Position numbers and translations under genes: made by a program | Assembly: GCA_965207225.1 (NCBI GenBank) | Contig: CBDBLV010000005.1 | Span: 1,344,001-1,408,000, forward strand | Direction of reading: 5' to 3' | Length of the DNA: 64,000 bases | DNA from: Dehalococcoidia bacterium | GTDB lineage: Bacteria; Chloroflexota; Dehalococcoidia; Plut-88900 | Part shown: positions 11,175 to 47,322 of the stretch, one piece after another | How positions within the stretch are numbered: the stretch's first letter is position 1 | Layout: every line of letters begins with the position of its first letter | The notes under the pieces: generated by a model | Told to the model about the DNA's origin: nothing | What the model saw: the letters and a program-made list of their open reading frames with translations, nothing else | Databases searched by the model: none

Positions 11175-12383
11175 CTATTTGTCGACGAAAACGAGGGTGC
11201 GCCGTTTGCCGACTTTCATGCGTGCTCCGGGCACGAGCTTGGACCGGTTAACGGCGTACTCGGAGAGCTTGCTGCCGTCCAGTTCGACGCCGCCGCCGTC
11301 GATGAGGCGTCGGGCTTCGCCGGTGGAAGATGCGGCTTTGTGTTCAACGAGGAGTCGGGGGATGAAGGCGGCATCTCCGTCGCTCAGGGAAGCGAGGGGG
11401 ACTTCGGTGACGATGTCGTCGGCTTCTTTGCGTTGAACGATGCGCTCGAACTCGGTCTCGGCGGAGGCGGCGGCCTGGGGGGAGTGGAACTGGGCGACGA
11501 TTTCCCGGGCGAGGCGTTTCTTGAGGTCAAGGGGGTTCACGGAGCGGGAGGCGAGGGCCTGGGACAAGTCGGAGACTTCGTTGTCGGGGAGGTCGGTGAC
11601 CAACTCTAGGTAGTTGGGGATCAGATCGTCGTTGAGGCGCATGACCTTGAAGTAGGTGTCCTTCGGTGGTTCGGCGACGCCGATGTAGTTGTCGAGGCTC
11701 TTGCTCATGCGCTGGACGCCGTCGGTGCCGACCAGGATGGGGACGAGGAGGCACTGCTGGGGTTTCTGGCCCACCATGCCCTGGAGCTCGCGCCCGAGGA
11801 GCAGGTTGAACTTCTGGTCGGTGCCGCCGAATTCGACGTCTGCTTCGACTACTGTCGAGTCATAGGCCTGGAGGAGAGGGTAGAGAAGCTCGGTTATGGC
11901 GATGGGCCGGTTGGCCTTGAAGCGGTTGGAGAAGTCCTCCCGGGCGAGGATCTGGGCGACGGTGAAGCGGCTGGTGAGGGAGATGACCTCGGTGAGGGTG
12001 AACTTGCCGAACCAGTCGCTCTGCCATCGGACCTCGGTACGGTCTTTGTCCACGACTTTGAAGAACTGCTCCATGTAGGTGCGGGCGTTCTCCTGTACCT
12101 GCTCGGCGGAGAGCATCTGCCGGGTGGCGGACTGGCCGCTGGGGTCGCCGATCTGGGCGGTCCAGTCGCCGACGATGAGGATGACGCGGTGGCCGAGCTC
12201 CTGGAACTGGCGCAGCTTGCGCAAGCCGACGGTGTGGCCGAGATGGATATCGGCGCGGCTGGGGTCGAAGCCCATCTTGAGGCGAAGGGGTCGGCCGGAG
12301 TCCAGGAGGTCTTCAAGCTCCTGCTGGCGGATGATCTCGGCGACGCCACGGGTGAAAAGGTGAGCGTATTTTTGATTAGTCAT
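11175..12383 (-). CDS. tyrS: Tyrosine--tRNA ligase
   Basis: GFDP..HLGH, IGDPSG, GGTDQ, RMSKS, C-terminal S4 domain. Confidence 0.97.
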   Translation of the reverse strand: MTNQKYAHLFTRGVAEIIRQQELEDLLDSGRPLRLKMGFDPSRADIHLGHTVGLRKLRQFQELGHRVILIVGDWTAQIGDPSGQSATRQMLSAEQVQENARTYMEQFFKVVDKDRTEVRWQSDWFGKFTLTEVISLTSRFTVAQILAREDFSNRFKANRPIAITELLYPLLQAYDSTVVEADVEFGGTDQKFNLLLGRELQGMVGQKPQQCLLVPILVGTDGVQRMSKSLDNYIGVAEPPKDTYFKVMRLNDDLIPNYLELVTDLPDNEVSDLSQALASRSVNPLDLKKRLAREIVAQFHSPQAAASAETEFERIVQRKEADDIVTEVPLASLSDGDAAFIPRLLVEHKAASSTGEARRLIDGGGVELDGSKLSEYAVNRSKLVPGARMKVGKRRTLVFVDK

Positions 12384-13306
12384 CGGCTGGGACTCGCGGC
12401 GAGGACTTTGCGGGCCACTTTCACGTCGTTGTTCATCTGCTCAATCAGCTCCGGGACGCCGGAGAAGCGCATGTCGCTGCGGACGAGGGCGAGGAAGTCG
12501 ACGGAGAGGTGCTGGCCGTAGATGTCCTCGTCGAAGTCGAAGATGAAGACCTCCGTGGCGCGGGTCTCGCCTTCGAAGGTGGGTTTGCTGCCTACGTAGG
12601 TTATGGAGTCCAGCATGCGGTCGTCCAGCAGGGCACGGGTGGCGTAGATGCCGTCGGCGAGGAGGGCGCGGTCGGGTGGGACCTGGATGTTGGCGGTGGG
12701 GAAGCCGAGGAGGCGGCCACGCTTGTCTCCGACGACCACGGGGCCCGAGAGGCGGAAGGGTCGGGCCATTAGGCGCATGGCGAGGTCGACGTTGCCGGTG
12801 GAGAGGGCTTCGCGGATGGCGGTACTGCTGACGGTGAGGTCGCCTTCGCGGATTACGTCCTGGCAGACGACTTCGTAACCGTGTTCAGTTCCGAGTCGCG
12901 TCAGGGTGGGCACGTCTCCCTCCCGGCCCTTGCCGAGGGCGAAGTCCTGGCCGCAGACTAGGGCTTTCATGTTCAGCCTGGTCACAAGCTGTTGGACGAA
13001 TTCCGAGGCCCTGAGCTGGGACACTTCCCGGGTGAAGTTGATGGCGACGACGTGGTCGATGCCGAGGGCTTTGATTGCTTCGAGGCGGGAGTCGAGGTCC
13101 ATGAGGTACTGGGGATGGAAGGCCGGGGCGAGGACGGTCAACGGATGGTTGTGGAAGGTTACGACGGCGGAGTCCAGGCCGCGACGCCCGGCTTCTTCGA
13201 TTGTGCGCTGAAAGAGGGTCTTGTGGCCTAGGTGGACGCCATCGAACACTCCGATGGCTACGGCTGTGTGGGTGTCGGGCGGGGGGCCGGCGAGCTCTTC
13301 CAGCAA
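12380..13306 (-). CDS. ribF: Bifunctional riboflavin kinase/FAD synthetase
   Basis: GVFDGVHLGH, SSTAIR, GRLLGFPTAN; TTG start. Confidence 0.96.
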   Translation of the reverse strand: MLEELAGPPPDTHTAVAIGVFDGVHLGHKTLFQRTIEEAGRRGLDSAVVTFHNHPLTVLAPAFHPQYLMDLDSRLEAIKALGIDHVVAINFTREVSQLRASEFVQQLVTRLNMKALVCGQDFALGKGREGDVPTLTRLGTEHGYEVVCQDVIREGDLTVSSTAIREALSTGNVDLAMRLMARPFRLSGPVVVGDKRGRLLGFPTANIQVPPDRALLADGIYATRALLDDRMLDSITYVGSKPTFEGETRATEVFIFDFDEDIYGQHLSVDFLALVRSDMRFSGVPELIEQMNNDVKVARKVLAASPSR

Positions 13307-13440
13307 AGGGTGGACCTATATCCGAATACGACCCCTACCGAGGGATAGGGGTCACTGGGTAGGATGGTAGCACGGGCATCGGGACAAGTCTACCAAGCAG
13401 ACGGATTCGGGGGGAAGGGGAGGCCCTGGCGTGTATTCAG

Positions 13441-14146
13441 TTGTGGGGTTTCGGGGTTTGGGTTTGTCTGTTGGGTTTTGGGTCGGCGATGGAAGACGCA
13501 CCTGGTGAGCCGTTGGTCCCTACCATGCGGTGTTCCAGCTGTCCAGGGCCATGGAGGTCCGCCGGGGGGCGGATTGCAGCCGGCCGCACCCTTATGCTCG
13601 ATGTGTGCTCCGGCTGTTCGGGCAGACAGCCGGGCTTTGACCCGCTCCCAGGCGCCTAAGGGCGCAGTGGGGGCCAGTGATCGGGCGGGTAGCCCCCGGG
13701 GGAATTTCTATTACGTGGCGCAACCACGGGTCCTGGCCGCCCCAGCTACCCCTGTGCTTGATTTGGTGTGGCGTAAGCTCGCCGACGGGCCAACCTCCGA
13801 GAGAGCTACTCTCGTGCGGGGTTTGCCGGCCCGCCACCCCTATCTTGATATAGCGCAAGTTCGCTACAGTCCGACCTCCGAGACGGTCTCTCGGCGGGGG
13901 GTGGCCGGTCTGCTTGGCTTCTATCCAGGGCGTCTTTCCATCGCCTGGGGGACAGGGAAGGGACACGGAACCCAGTGGGATGAGGAGATGGCGACGTTCG
14001 CTTGTGCCGCAACCTTCCTGCCTCGCAAGGGGGGCGATTGGCCGGTCGCCCCTACAAGAGAGGGGAGAGGTCTTGGGATGGGCTAGGGCGTTGAGTCCTC
14101 GGTGTCGGGTCTCGGGGGCTTCCCTGGGTTTTTGGTTCCTCCTTAA
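13441..14146. ncRNA. Putative large structured non-coding element, copy A (unassigned family)
   Basis: Closing stem 13485-13505 with 13925-13945, many internal hairpins, frame motifs shared with 46560-47102, no credible ORF. Confidence 0.55.
14032..14055 (-). repeat. GTAG-type REP palindrome inside element A
   Basis: Minus strand GTAGGGGCGACCGGCCAATCGCCC; related copy at 46446-46469. Confidence 0.65.
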
Positions 14147-14173
14147 GGTGGTGTCGGGTCTAGACTTAGAACA

Positions 14174-14202
14174 AATATAAGGCTCAAGTGTTTGCATGTC
14201 AA
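14174..14202 (-). promoter_or_regulatory. Sigma70-type promoter pointing into element A
   Basis: Minus strand TTGACA-17 nt-TATATT. Confidence 0.65.
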
Positions 14203-14303
14203 GGGGTAATGTCATATTTGGGGGGAATGTCTGAACTGTGATTCGTGGGATTGATGGATTGGTCTGATATGTTGGGGGGAGGGATACCCCCAGCCCCCCA
14301 GGG

Positions 14304-14419
14304 GAACCCTCACCCCCTTGATCCCCCTCTCCCTTAGGGCCTATAAGGGAGAGGGGGAAGGAAGAACAGAGGCAGACGTGGGTGCAACGCACCCACGTCT
14401 GCCTCTAGTTCATTACTGG
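14304..14419. repeat. About 116-bp double-hairpin intergenic repeat, family R1 copy 1
   Basis: CCCCCTCTCCCTTA..TAAGGGAGAGGGGG plus an 18-bp stem AGAGGCAGACGTGGGTGC/GCACCCACGTCTGCCTCT; homologs at 46271 and 47207. Confidence 0.9.
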
Positions 14420-14486
14420 AGGGAGGGGGATGGGATGGGGTTGGATGGCTTTGAGGGTGTGGCCTAGTTTGAGTAAACTGGACGGT

Positions 14487-45015: not shown

Positions 45016-46026
45016 TTAGGCGGGGTCCTTAAGGCTGACCCTTTCCCTGACGGCGGGGTTTACGAGGTTGAGAGGCCAGTGACCGGTGAGGACACGGACC
45101 ATCTCCTCTCCGACGCGGCGGTGAAGGAGGTCGAAGGCGTTGTCGGAGTAAGAGGCGGTGTGGGGAAGGATGGCGACGTTGTCCATCTTGAGCAGGGGAT
45201 TGCCGGGGTCTACGGGCTCCTTTTCGAAGACGTCCAGGCCGGCGCCTGCTATTTCACCGCCTTGGAGGGCCTCGATGAGGGCAGGCTCGTCGACAACGGG
45301 GCCGCGGGAGGTATTGATGAGGAAGGCGGAGTTCTTCATCCGGCGGAACTGCTCGGCGCCCATGAGGTGATGGGTGTCGGGGGTGAGGGGGGTGTGGAGG
45401 GAAACGTAGTCGGACCTCTCAAGAAGCTCTTCGAAGGAGACGAGCTTTATCCCGACCTCGTCTGCCTGCTCCTGGGATATGAAGGGGTCGTAGCCGATGA
45501 CTTCGAGGCCGAAGACGCGGGCCTTCCGGGCCACGGCGCGGGCGATGTTGCCGCAGGCGACCAGTCCCAGGGTCTGGCCATAGATGGAGCCCATAGGATA
45601 GAGCAGGTCCCGGCCCCAGTTGCCGGCGCGGGTCCAGCCGTCCAATTTAATCAGCTTCTTGGCGGAGGCCAAGAGGAGCATCAGGGCGTGGTTGGAGACT
45701 TCTTCCCAGCAGAAGTCGGGGACGTTGGCGATGACAATGGAGTGGTCGGTGAGGGCCTGGGGATCCAGGGTGTCGATGCCGACGCCGTAGCGGACGACGA
45801 CCTTGCAGCCCGGCGGCAACGCGGCGGCAGCCTTGGCGCGAATCGGGGCGCGGATGTTGAGGATGCCGTCCATGCCTTGCGCGGCTTCAATTACCTCGTC
45901 CTCGGTCGTGCAGGGGATGGGTATGAGCTCGGCGCCGATCCGGGCGAGGGTATTGGTCTCGACGTCCAGGGGGGCGCCGAGGTTGTCGGGGTCGGTGTGA
46001 AGGACTCTGAATTTGGCTTGAGTCAT
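45016..46026 (-). CDS. D-2-hydroxyacid dehydrogenase (CtBP/PGDH-like); start at MTQAKF after GGAGG
   Basis: RYGVGID, CGNIAR, SLHTP, INTSRG, LDVFEKEP, PHTA. Confidence 0.92.
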   Translation of the reverse strand: MTQAKFRVLHTDPDNLGAPLDVETNTLARIGAELIPIPCTTEDEVIEAAQGMDGILNIRAPIRAKAAAALPPGCKVVVRYGVGIDTLDPQALTDHSIVIANVPDFCWEEVSNHALMLLLASAKKLIKLDGWTRAGNWGRDLLYPMGSIYGQTLGLVACGNIARAVARKARVFGLEVIGYDPFISQEQADEVGIKLVSFEELLERSDYVSLHTPLTPDTHHLMGAEQFRRMKNSAFLINTSRGPVVDEPALIEALQGGEIAGAGLDVFEKEPVDPGNPLLKMDNVAILPHTASYSDNAFDLLHRRVGEEMVRVLTGHWPLNLVNPAVRERVSLKDPA

Positions 46027-46110
46027 GACAAGTTTCCTCCGATCGAGGCATATGGTAGCCGTGACATACCGGACGGGCAACTCGCCGGTCTTTTATTCGG
46101 TTGTGGGTTT

Positions 46111-46152
46111 TTGATTGAACGTTGATTGAATTCATAGCCGGTTTGATTGAAC
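46111..46152. promoter_or_regulatory. Three phased TTGATTGAA direct repeats (operator candidate)
   Basis: Copies at 46111, 46122 and 46143. Confidence 0.55.
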
Positions 46153-46270
46153 GACGCCTAAAAGGGATTTCTGGGGATTTCGCGTGGCGGATGGGGGCAA
46201 GGGGAAAGGGTGGGGTTTTGATTGTTTTGCGGTTTCAGGCACGGCTTTGATTGTTTAAGGAACGTGGAGT

Positions 46271-46387
46271 GAACCCTCACCCCCTTGATCCCCCTCTCCC
46301 TTAGGGCCCTTAAGGGAGAGGGGGAGAGAAGAACAGAGACAGAGGTCGGCGCTTTTGCGCCGACCTCTGTCTCTAGTTCAATACTGG
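46271..46387. repeat. Family R1 double-hairpin repeat, copy 2 (variant second stem)
   Basis: Same frame as 14304; second stem AGAGACAGAGGTCGGCGC/GCGCCGACCTCTGTCTCT. Confidence 0.9.
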
Positions 46388-46445
46388 GTAGAAGGGAAGG
46401 AATACCCCTCAGCAGCATAGGGAGACCCTCACTCCGCACCGGGGA

Positions 46446-46523
46446 GGGCGACCCGCCGGTCGCCCCTACGGGAACCCGGCCTCGCCCCTCGGGATGGATT
46501 CCCGATCGGAGTCGGGAATGACG
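46446..46523 (-). repeat. GTAG-type REP followed by a CGTCATTCCCG-type REP
   Basis: Minus strand GTAGGGGCGACCGGCGGGTCGCCC and CGTCATTCCCGACTCCGATCGGGAATCC palindromes. Confidence 0.7.
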
Positions 46524-46559
46524 GGTGGGCAAGTCGGGGATGGCGGTGGGGTTGTGCGG

Positions 46560-47102
46560 TTGTGGGGTCTGGGTCTGCATTTTGTCTGTTTTGGCTGAGT
46601 AGGCGATGGAGGTCCAAACTCATATGCAGGGGGCGGGAGGCCAGCCTGCGCAGCCCCATAGGTTTGATATTGGTTCCGGGGGCGACCGAGAACGTCTCGG
46701 CGTGGGGCCATGCCCGTATACCAGTGGCGCTCACCCCCTCTATGAGGAGGGAGCGCGAACCCGCTACCGCCGTCTATGTGACGACGGTGGAGTCACATGG
46801 CGCTCACCCCTGTATGAGGGGGGAGCGTCGAACCCGCTTCCGTCGTCGACGTAGACGACGGTGGAGTCCCGCAAGGGCTCTAAGGCCCTGAGCCCGACAA
46901 AGTGGGGCCGTCCTTGTTCACCGGCAAGGTAAATGCCGGTTACGCAAGTACCCCGGTTAGGGGGCGTTTTGGGCAGAGTCTCTAAGAGAGGGGGCCTGCC
47001 CGTATCGAGTCGATGGACCATCCATCGCCTGGATGGTCAGGGAAGGGGCACGGGACCCGGTGGGGTCTCGGAGGCTTCCCTGGGTTTTTTGTTCCTCCTG
47101 AA
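46560..47102. ncRNA. Putative large structured non-coding element, copy B (unassigned family)
   Basis: Closing stem 46601-46616 with 47014-47030; internal 73-nt-period duplication; frame shared with copy A. Confidence 0.55.
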
Positions 47103-47131
47103 ATCATCGAAACTTAGTTCGAACCAGGAAC

Positions 47132-47159
47132 AGTTTAGCACGGGTGTAATAGAAGTCAA
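47132..47159 (-). promoter_or_regulatory. Sigma70-type promoter pointing into element B
   Basis: Minus strand TTGACT-16 nt-TAAACT with TG extended -10. Confidence 0.55.
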
Positions 47160-47206
47160 GGGTCTTGGGTGCGGGTTTTGGGGGAATATCCCCCCGCCCC
47201 TCAGGG

Positions 47207-47322
47207 GAACCCTCACCCCCTTTATCCCCCTCTCCCTTGGGGCCTATAAGGGAGAGGGGGAGAGAAGAACAGAGGCAGACGTGGGTGCAACGCACCCACG
47301 TCTGCCTCTAGTTCAGTACTGG
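47207..47322. repeat. Family R1 double-hairpin repeat, copy 3
   Basis: Near-identical to 14304-14419. Confidence 0.9.

Follow-up and report, generated by a model that had tools for sequence, protein, structure and literature searches.

What kind of genetic element keeps a constant frame around an exchangeable interior, and what does it do in front of unrelated housekeeping genes? The question is raised by two intergenic regions, copy A (13441-14202) and copy B (46560-47159), in a 64,000-nt stretch of the genome of a Dehalococcoidia bacterium (contig CBDBLV010000005.1, positions 1,344,001 to 1,408,000 of the forward strand), here called the window. Both regions belong to a family of 42 loci in this genome, whose members open with a sigma-70-like promoter, hold a folded domain closed by a long-range helix and mostly precede a gene read in the same direction. 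The best reading of the family is that of an undescribed, dispersed, promoter-driven structured-RNA unit of unproven function. More specifically, each copy may be a self-contained non-coding transcription unit on the minus strand that also feeds transcription toward its host gene, an account to which we give roughly even chances; the RNA itself may have a role of its own.

An earlier note on this DNA, made from the letters alone, had reported ordered motifs common to copies A and B, and its statements on the sequence all hold. Both copies contain a 9-bp stem, a 1-nt bulge and a 6-bp helix of different sequence, together called helix P2. In copy A, GGCGATGGA (13485-13493) pairs with TCCATCGCC (13937-13945), a single T is left unpaired at 13936 (plus strand), and AGACGC (13494-13499) pairs with GCGTCT (13930-13935); in copy B, the same stem is formed by GGCGATGGA (46602-46610) and TCCATCGCC (47021-47029), followed by an unpaired A at 47020 and the pairing of GGTCCA (46611-46616) with TGGACC (47014-47019). 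The second helix, CAGGGAAG/CTTCCCTG, forms the base of a hairpin, P1, and lies at 13953-13960/14119-14126 in copy A and 47038-47045/47075-47082 in copy B. From the same side, a sigma-70-like promoter on the minus strand points into each copy (TTGACA-17-TATATT, 14202..14174, 11/12 matches in A; TTGACT-16-TAAACT, 47159..47132, 9/12 matches in B), and each region has this one promoter-like site and no other, the mean in shuffled sequence being 0.3. Past the promoter lies AGGAGG (plus-strand CCTCCT at 14138-14143 and 47094-47099) with no ATG, GTG or TTG within the following 15 nt in either copy, and on the other side of the promoter both copies have a repeat, R1. The parts of the two copies are as follows.

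Copy A:
14174..14202, minus strand: promoter, with -35 TTGACA at 14202..14197, a 17-nt spacer and -10 TATATT at 14179..14174; the sole site in the region
14144..14173, minus strand: initial transcribed leader, weakly structured, with a start predicted near 14167 from the position of the -10
14138..14143, minus strand: Shine-Dalgarno (SD)-like AGGAGG without start codon, then an A-run (plus-strand T-run 14129-14133)
13953..14126, minus strand: hairpin P1 in its expanded form, with base CAGGGAAG/CUUCCCUG, conserved internal loops and small palindromic inserts
13930..13945, minus strand: 5' RNA arm of helix P2, consisting of GGCGAUGGA, a bulged A and AGACGC
13500..13929, minus strand: interior domain
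13485..13499, minus strand: 3' RNA arm of helix P2, GCGUCU then UCCAUCGCC
13441..13484, minus strand: A/C-rich, G/U-poor single-stranded tail, a proposed Rho loading site
13393..13440, minus strand: terminal segment (..CUGAAUA.., CCGAAU..) up to the host promoter, with a constant spacing of ~48 nt to the host -35

Copy B:
47132..47159, minus strand: promoter, TTGACT, 16-nt spacer, TAAACT
47094..47099, minus strand: SD-like AGGAGG without start codon
47038..47082, minus strand: hairpin P1 in a minimal 45-nt form
47014..47029, minus strand: 5' RNA arm of helix P2
46617..47013, minus strand: interior domain of the 410-nt type
46602..46616, minus strand: 3' RNA arm of helix P2
46560..46601, minus strand: A/C-rich tail

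The genome (handle G000; 4.03 Mb, 92% complete) was searched by BLAST with pieces of the frame, which gave 46 clusters. Four of them, with 26-nt matches, were set aside as a sister family, leaving 42 loci of 60-860 nt with copies A and B among them. The BLASTN search that the earlier note had proposed thus gave 42 loci here, together with matches in all eight congeneric genomes, and with 42 loci the resemblance of A and B is far beyond chance. In pattern searches, 36 of the 42 loci had all frame elements in order; of the remaining six, one is a 133-nt fragment and five each failed one pattern. Segments of the frame are 83-100% identical between copies that stand ahead of unrelated genes. In the order of the RNA, the unit begins with the promoter, a leader of ~25-30 nt, AAGGAGG, an A-run and hairpin P1 (62-71 nt in its minimal form, 90-240 nt with inserts). 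Then follow CCAGGCGAUGGA as the 5' arm of P2, an interior of 180-535 nt and UCCAUCGCC as the 3' arm, and the unit ends with an A/C-rich tail of ~45 nt terminating in CCCCACAAC-YGAAUA and a last segment of ~45-48 nt, for a total of 0.5-0.9 kb.

The interiors of A and B cannot be aligned with each other, as had been claimed, but they are not unique, since each type recurs in other copies. Interior lengths cluster at 287-293 nt (14 copies), 366-387 nt (8) and 441-449 nt (6), which indicates that interiors are recurring types; the type of copy A is the one of 441-449 nt in six copies, and two further copies have the same closing sequence with longer interiors. The middle of the unit is therefore exchangeable, as the idea of a variable cargo had it, although it is not free cargo, being drawn from a limited number of recurring module types that consist in part of small palindromic repeats. 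The interior of copy B also contains a tandem duplication of ~72 nt (46725-46794 vs 46798-46868, 87.5% identity).

The transcribed strand was assessed from promoters and from neighbouring genes. The upstream sequence was long enough in 57 copies, 38 of them from this genome and 19 from the congeneric genomes G005, G007 and G008, and every one had a sigma-70-like promoter scoring at least 9 of 12.5, with a -10 that ends 30-37 nt before AGGAGG; a score of at least 9.5 was reached by 46 of the 57 vs 2% of shuffles, and by 0/57 on the opposite (plus) strand in the stretch scanned. These promoters fall into three main sequence types. Gene orientation was taken from our own codon-usage gene caller (2,924 genes, 81% coding). 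The next gene past the tail is co-oriented with the element in 37 of 41 copies, one more copy lying at a contig end (one-sided binomial p ~5e-8, by hand calculation), while the neighbours on the promoter side are divided into 17 of the same and 25 of the opposite orientation. Taken together, the promoters and the direction of the following gene indicate that the window's minus strand is the one transcribed. The preference for this strand that the earlier note had drawn from the promoters was thereby borne out, and its counter-argument for the plus strand from G-T pairs failed: on the minus strand, three interior types had G-U vs A-C counts of 4 v 5, 10 v 13 and 7 v 3, the P2 extension had 7 v 6, and P1 outside one hairpin had ~11 v 11. 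Strand assignment by wobble pairs was rejected as uninformative on account of this symmetry.

Folding of copy B gave -259.8 kcal/mol (z = -7.5) for the minus strand and -289.9 kcal/mol (z = -6.6) for the plus strand. The P2 extension, which played no part in finding the copies, forms at least five of its six pairs in 50 of 53 copies from four genomes and comes in two main sequence types. Hence, the compensatory covariation that had been claimed stands as far as the pairing is concerned, whereas the covariation is the difference between two module types and not the product of many independent events. In the expanded form of P1 (18 copies), 97.4% of alignment cells are paired vs 92.9 +/- 0.5% in shuffles (0/500 reach the observed value) and seven pairs have changed on both sides (5/500 shuffles reach this), figures that are to be read with the caveat that the structure was derived from the same alignment on which it was tested; when the partners are slid by 1-3 columns, only 26-58% pair. 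Of these seven, five mark the difference between two insert subtypes, which means few events. The P1 base helix CAGGGAAG/CTTCCCTG, noted earlier as conserved, is kept in 18/18 aligned copies, and two of its pairs show double changes that look independent. Conservation of sequence is marked in two places: the 30-nt P1 loop motif GAGGACUCAACGCCCUAGCCCAUCCCAA is nearly invariant in six ribF orthologous copies, and AGGAGG is nearly so in 23 aligned copies. Small palindromes lie within the P1 inserts (CCCCGAG-N3-4-UCGGGG and GGGGCGACCGGCCAAUCGCCCC are examples) and have relatives in the flanks, so that part of the dense packing with hairpins is repeat accretion.

The two ends of the predicted RNA are open. 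Leader folds are weak, at about -0.2 to -6.3 kcal/mol, and a 5'-terminal hairpin masking AGGAGG was rejected since these folds are also inconsistent. The tail, averaged over 47 copies, consists of 48% A, 38% C, 9.5% G and 4.4% U, and its unpaired probability is 0.84 vs 0.41 for the body. A G-quadruplex in the complement of the tail was considered and dropped, as it is not conserved in copy B (by eye).

No known RNA family could be recognised, in agreement with the earlier note. A scan of the whole 64-kb window with the Rfam 15 covariance models, which include 6S, tmRNA, RNase P, SRP, T-box, riboswitches and group I/II introns as well as OLE, GOLLD, ROOL, raiA and HEARO, gave no match at the gathering score; at E <=10, all matches above 20 bits lay in the flanking R1, and those inside the elements were below 20 bits, far below gathering. 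The protein-coding reading was rejected, there being no frame common to A and B and no Pfam or PHROG match for nine frames. These profile scans, with those of the sister family described below, also gave no sign of a terminase origin, within their limited reach for remote likeness. No description of the family was found in full-text literature searches, supplementary files aside, on Dehalococcoidia structured intergenic RNA or, among the papers listed, on Chloroflexi non-coding repeats. Terminal inverted repeats of at least 12 nt joining the outer ends of A or B were not found either. A comparison of the 24 nt before the promoter with the 24 nt before the host -35 gave 5.4 within a copy, 4.9 between copies and 5.05 in shuffled sequence (n = 10), showing no target duplication. 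Integration at the host -35 box or a target duplication was discarded for want of a direct repeat between the two flanks, and a classical non-autonomous transposon, such as a transposable element of the miniature inverted-repeat kind, found no support for want of terminal inverted repeats and target duplications. Of the two possibilities raised earlier, a large undescribed non-coding RNA class or a non-autonomous mobile unit, what stands is the large non-coding folded family and what is not supported is the classical transposon.

The family is confined to one genus of soil Dehalococcoidia, in which it was present in 9/9 genomes searched. BLAST with the 131-nt 5' part of copy B matched nine of 41 genomes, namely this one and all eight congeneric ones, with 13-36 matches each, and none of 32 genomes outside the genus, which came from three other genera of the same taxonomic family and from 29 further families. 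A covariance model built from 23 copies and spanning AGGAGG, the minimal P1 and the first arm of P2 found at least 30 matches in each of six genomes of the genus and matched one of 145 other genomes of the class. That single match (32.7 bits) was not counted as a homologue, since it lies at the start of a histidine-kinase gene and lacks the second P2 arm.

Positions are in part shared between species. The element is present at the ribF locus in 6/6 genomes, whose RibF proteins are 76-95% identical, at katG in 5/6 (absent in G006, with a possible remnant there), at nusA in 4/6 (absent in G001 and G006), and at the gene of copy B in three of the four genomes with an ortholog (absent within 1.5 kb in G007). 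Even at orthologous loci interiors and promoters differ, as between G000 and G008 at ribF, where RibF is 95% identical and both promoter type and interior have changed; copies are thus mosaics, which recombination between paralogues would most simply produce. Of 18 downstream flanks of relatives' copies with BLAST matches in this genome, 11 match within ~300 nt of a copy (some perhaps via shared repeats) and seven match sites with no copy within 4 kb. In two cases that were followed, synteny was broken exactly at the element, and the upstream flank of the G007 copy finds its match in this genome near another copy. The empty sites hold possible remnants or lie in broken synteny; in both cases tried the upstream flank was non-syntenic. 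Gene order differs between species at copies (L093 and L051 of G007 vs G000 C5:1315682-1317121 and C2:69067-69600), and such differences exactly at copies suggest that the repeats may mediate rearrangements.

The genes downstream of the elements and the repeats around copies A and B in the window are:

12380..13306, minus strand: ribF, host of copy A, bifunctional riboflavin kinase/FAD synthetase (308.9 bits, cut-off 295)
13364..13392, minus strand: own promoter of ribF, outside the element, with -35 TAGACT at 13392..13387, a 17-nt spacer and -10 TACCAT at 13369..13364
14290..14420, minus strand: R1 repeat upstream of the copy A promoter, with a 19-bp terminator-like hairpin at 14407..14367 followed by TTCTTCCTTC on the minus strand
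45016..46080, minus strand: host of copy B, of the D-2-hydroxyacid dehydrogenase family; best matches phosphoglycerate dehydrogenase and glyoxylate reductase, both below cut-offs
46334..46375, minus strand: terminator-like hairpin of R1, lying between copy B and the host gene

Host genes are unrelated to one another and include rpoB, nusA, rpsO, recA, gyrB, uvrA, rnhB, leuS, glnS and def, and further folD, katG, moaA, cofG, lgt, a fructose-bisphosphate (FBP) aldolase/phosphatase, a thiolase, CoA-transferases and amidohydrolases. Of the 37 co-oriented genes, the last 17 were scanned at E <=1e-60 only, and eight had no family match at the cut-offs used. One host is an IS481 transposase; of the four near-identical IS481 copies (three identical, one 99.7%) only this one adjoins an element, and a regular association of the two was accordingly not found. 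With recA and uvrA as hosts, control by LexA was considered and rejected: compared with the Cheo-box consensus as commonly given, a near match, CGAAC-N4-TTTCG, was seen by eye in the leader of copy B only, the other copies lacking the second half-site (by eye).

A sigma-70-like site lies within 130 nt past the tail in 13 of 31 copies, vs 4.5% of shuffles and 0/31 on the opposite strand, and in about nine copies this host site starts 47-55 nt after CCCCACAAC; in the rest, repeats (R1, small palindromes, an TTCAATCAA array) are inserted between tail and gene. Homology with element-less relatives resumes 2 nt upstream of the host -35 at nusA, 6 nt at katG and 4 nt at a G007 locus compared with G000, so that at these three loci the host promoter begins 2-6 nt past the last base of the element. 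The host promoters are kept across species (ribF TAGACT-17-TACCAT, nusA TTGCAA-18-TATAAT, katG TTCCAA-17-TACTAT); that of ribF is conserved in six genomes, in two of which the -35 reads TTGACC.

From these features the following course of events can be proposed. A near-consensus sigma-70 promoter would fire into the element and yield an RNA that begins with an open leader of ~25-30 nt and an exposed AAGGAGG without start codon, folds into hairpin P1 and then into a large domain closed by the long-range helix P2, and ends with a 45-nt unpaired A/C-rich tail. The exposed AAGGAGG might act like a STAB-SD stabiliser (see below), and this start-codon-less ribosome-binding site would, along with the dense folding, make the RNA long-lived in the face of RNase J, which is encoded in the genome (562 bits). 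Rho, also encoded (596 bits), would load on the tail and end transcription, unless an R1 hairpin does so where one is present; a C-rich, G-poor, unstructured tail in an untranslated RNA is what a Rho-dependent terminator would be expected to offer. If termination is incomplete, the unit would also deliver polymerases into the host gene, and such leakage would explain why only co-oriented copies persist. The family itself is old within its genus, is seated at conserved loci and evolves, most simply, by recombination between copies, in which promoters, P1 inserts and interiors are swapped.

A metatranscriptome library (X1) gives a weak hint of expression. Fifteen contigs matched here, and the eight pieces listed all lie within 13470-14144; outside the element the sole depth is in the bin 14224-14297, beside R1. 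There is no depth on ribF and no contig bridging copy A and ribF, which is not evidence of absence. Two contigs end 5 and 10 nt past 14144, which places their ends 16-21 nt beyond the T-run of the plus strand, with another 13-18 nt to go to the predicted start. At 90-99% likeness, the contigs may come from paralogues or relatives.

Several points weigh against a self-contained transcription unit. Neither the strand nor the level of transcription can be read from the library contigs, which may also stem from carried-over DNA. No function can be named for the RNA itself, and the unit may matter mainly as an extra upstream promoter. Host genes keep conserved promoters of their own and have no need of the unit, and in about eight of 31 downstream stretches (by eye) an R1 hairpin stands between tail and host gene, which argues against read-through in those copies. 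The wobble counts carry no strand signal, so that the helices could be palindromes at the DNA level; the plus strand folds about equally well (z = -6.6 vs -7.5 in copy B), and on that strand P1 with the T-run resembles an intrinsic terminator.

The rival that fares best, with perhaps one chance in a handful or slightly better, is a pure cis-acting second promoter with a long 5' leader. Polymerases from the element would run through into the host gene, the RNA would never be a separate product, and the family would be a mobile strong promoter with an mRNA-stabilising 5' end. This would account for the co-orientation in 37/41 copies and for the abutment on the host -35 within 2-6 nt at three loci, and compact copies such as A have no intrinsic terminator after the tail; the exposed SD-like sequence near the 5' end and the presence of RNase J fit equally. 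It sits less well with host promoters that are conserved with and without the element, and an untranslated 0.5-0.9-kb RNA with a C-rich open tail is a textbook Rho substrate. The R1 hairpins that part tail from gene in ~8/31 copies (by eye) and the lack of an RNA contig joining element and ribF also speak against it.

It is rather improbable that the family is a selfish or neutral intergenic repeat of the BOX/ERIC/Correia kind, made of DNA palindromes in a tolerant spacer with an incidental promoter, whose frame is kept alike by gene conversion and not by function. Such a repeat would hardly be expected to hold its promoter at a fixed distance in 57/57 copies from four genomes while the sequence type changes, or to keep the 30-nt P1 loop motif and the stretch from AGGAGG to P1 almost invariant across species whose RibF is only 76% identical; the strong orientation bias and the absence of terminal inverted repeats and target duplications also count against it. 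What recommends the idea is the restriction to one genus with 13-36 or more matches per genome, the shuffling of modules even at orthologous loci, the occurrence elsewhere of the small palindromes of P1 inserts and flanks, the strand symmetry of the wobble counts and the location of copies at synteny breakpoints.

A related proposal, which we regard as doubtful, sees in the unit a present or former mobile element aimed at sigma-70 promoters, which would land in a single orientation so that its last base comes to lie 2-6 nt upstream of the -35 box. We know of no transposon with such a target rule, and the element lacks any of the usual transposon ends. If it were true, core genes such as rpoB, nusA, recA and gyrB would each have received a second strong promoter, a large folded RNA and, flanking their own promoter upstream, new sequence, and one lineage-specific module would wire some 35 housekeeping genes together.

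Very unlikely is a plus-strand RNA that runs from the G/T-rich end to the P1 hairpin with the T-run as intrinsic terminator. A terminator-like hairpin and T-run do occur on the plus strand of both copies, and this strand folds at -289.9 kcal/mol (z = -6.6) in copy B; it has no promoter, however, since in the stretch scanned 0/57 copies reach 9.5. An RNA of this kind would also lie antisense to the host gene's promoter region, and the library contigs extend 16-21 nt beyond the T-run. A retron-like or guide-RNA element serving a reverse transcriptase (RT) or RNA-guided nuclease encoded elsewhere, whose one supporting trait is that the interior's two ends pair at long range, has next to no probability, given RTs at C2:158 kb and C5:1.548, 1.554 and 1.671 Mb of which none adjoins a copy, no TnpB-type zinc-ribbon match, no Rfam match to retron, HEARO or other families, and at least 30 copies each with its own promoter.

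The likeness to retron a1/a2 arms and the search for a co-occurring RT or RNA-guided nuclease partner, both put forward in the earlier note, accordingly led nowhere. The RVT_1 search of the 92%-complete genome found four RT genes, the nearest ~16 kb from any copy; none lies in the window, and none adjoins one of the 42 loci. For the TnpB/Cas12f zinc ribbon (PF07282) the same genome had no match, with no separate search for IscB. Like a retron msr-msd, the unit has inverted repeats that pair both ends of a variable middle; unlike it, there is no adjacent RT, the middle measures 180-535 nt, and the unit has its own promoter and stands before a housekeeping gene.

Among described systems, putative mobile promoters are the closest concept. 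They are highly similar non-coding sequences including a promoter that recur within a genome upstream of numerous genes without homology to one another. Their definition rested on 50-100-nt stretches at -150 to -50 of the start codon, and they have no link to a known insertion sequence, their mode of spread being unknown (Nijveen, Matus-Garcia and van Passel 2012; PMC3575422). The same work names Correia elements, ERIC and REPINs as promoter-bearing repeats (PMC3575422). Stretches of at least 80% identity over at least 50 nt before non-homologous genes are found here too, but the present unit is 0.5-0.9 kb long, encodes a large folded RNA, has at least 30 copies per genome and adds to the host promoter from upstream instead of replacing it. 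With Correia, ERIC, REPINs and BOX it shares being dispersed, transcribed, hairpin-forming, gene-adjacent and modular, and these repeats can carry promoters as well. BOX elements, moreover, have conserved ends and a variable middle. Such repeats measure 100-300 bp, the present unit being several times longer, and in most of them terminal inverted repeats are present, often with target duplications, whereas neither was found here; the strict co-orientation with the next gene and the fixed junction with the host -35 also set the unit apart.

The 5' end recalls the stabilising SD (STAB-SD) of Bacillus thuringiensis cry3A, a start-codon-less SD sequence near the 5' end that is thought to hold 30S and block 5'-exonuclease. 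Similarly, AAGGAGG is accessible here in a weakly folded leader, 30-37 nt past the -10 in 57/57 copies and without a start codon, and by this analogy the unit RNA may be stabilised in the same manner. STAB-SD is a short motif in one mRNA leader, whereas the motif found here stands at the head of a multicopy unit that is several hundred nucleotides long. In size, dense structure, intergenic position and unknown function, the family resembles OLE, GOLLD, ROOL, raiA and HEARO/omega-RNA. Those RNAs have one or few copies per genome and a conserved core; here, there are at least 30 copies, the core is the variable part, and no covariance model matches.

If the RNA is made as predicted, one genus would carry at least 30 large structured RNAs that are paralogues of one another and each linked to a core gene, an arrangement without a described counterpart to our knowledge, and the family would offer a test of the way in which repeats with promoters rewire expression. 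How the family spread is a testable question that the fixed junction with the host -35 raises. For annotation, such gaps of 0.5-0.9 kb in Dehalococcoidia, with the long spurious open frames they contain, should not be taken for genes, and the copies also mark sites of genome rearrangement.

Some further observations concern the neighbouring repeats. R1 is a two-hairpin repeat of ~130 nt, found in the window at 14290-14420, 47190-47320 and 46280-46400; its second hairpin has 19 bp, is followed by UGUUCUUC and is terminator-like on the minus strand. Its terminator-like hairpins thus stand upstream of the promoters of both copies and downstream of copy B. The genome has ~103 BLAST pieces of R1 of at least 80 nt, and in DNA sequencing runs the depth over it is very high. 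In ~10 copies the space from the tail to the host gene holds a recurring module of AGGCGTCATTCAATCAAAACAGCTACGAGTTCAATCAATGTTCAATCAA and tandem TTCAATCAA units, which stands just upstream of several host genes (window 46100-46200 is an example). REP-like small palindromic units are found in intergenic DNA and nested in elements (e.g. window 46440-46530 and loci L005, L007 and L026), examples being CGTCATTCCCGA..TCGGGAATCC, CCCCGAG-N3-4-TCGGGG and GGGGCGACCGG..TCGCCCC.

The sister family consists of four copies (L094-L097; G000 C3:166960-168085, C3:255433-256558, C5:1330350-1331475 and C5:1736716-1737841), which have the P2 helix and the GGTCC-type interior in common with the main family and a different promoter and 5' module. 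In three of the four an ATG follows AAGGAG, and a long frame continues through the flanking repeats; three frames had no Pfam or PHROG match. The RT genes lie at G000 C2:158087-158773, C5:1548409-1549095, C5:1553608-1554405 and C5:1671488-1672288; two of them are identical 586-aa frames and may be of the group II intron type. The IS481-family transposase genes are at G000 C1:39217-40341, C4:457473-458597, C4:503570-504694 and C5:1203825-1204949, and their near-identity suggests recent transposition. Two host leaders have structures of their own. Between the promoter of ribF and its TTG start (window 13307-13363) lies a hairpin, GACCCCTATCCCTCGGTAGGGGTC, conserved in six genomes, and the nusA leader has a hairpin and T-run (GGAAGTGGGCGC..CCCACTTTTTTT), likewise conserved in six genomes, as would be expected for an attenuator. 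Upstream of the nusA loci, a tRNA gene is found on the opposite strand.

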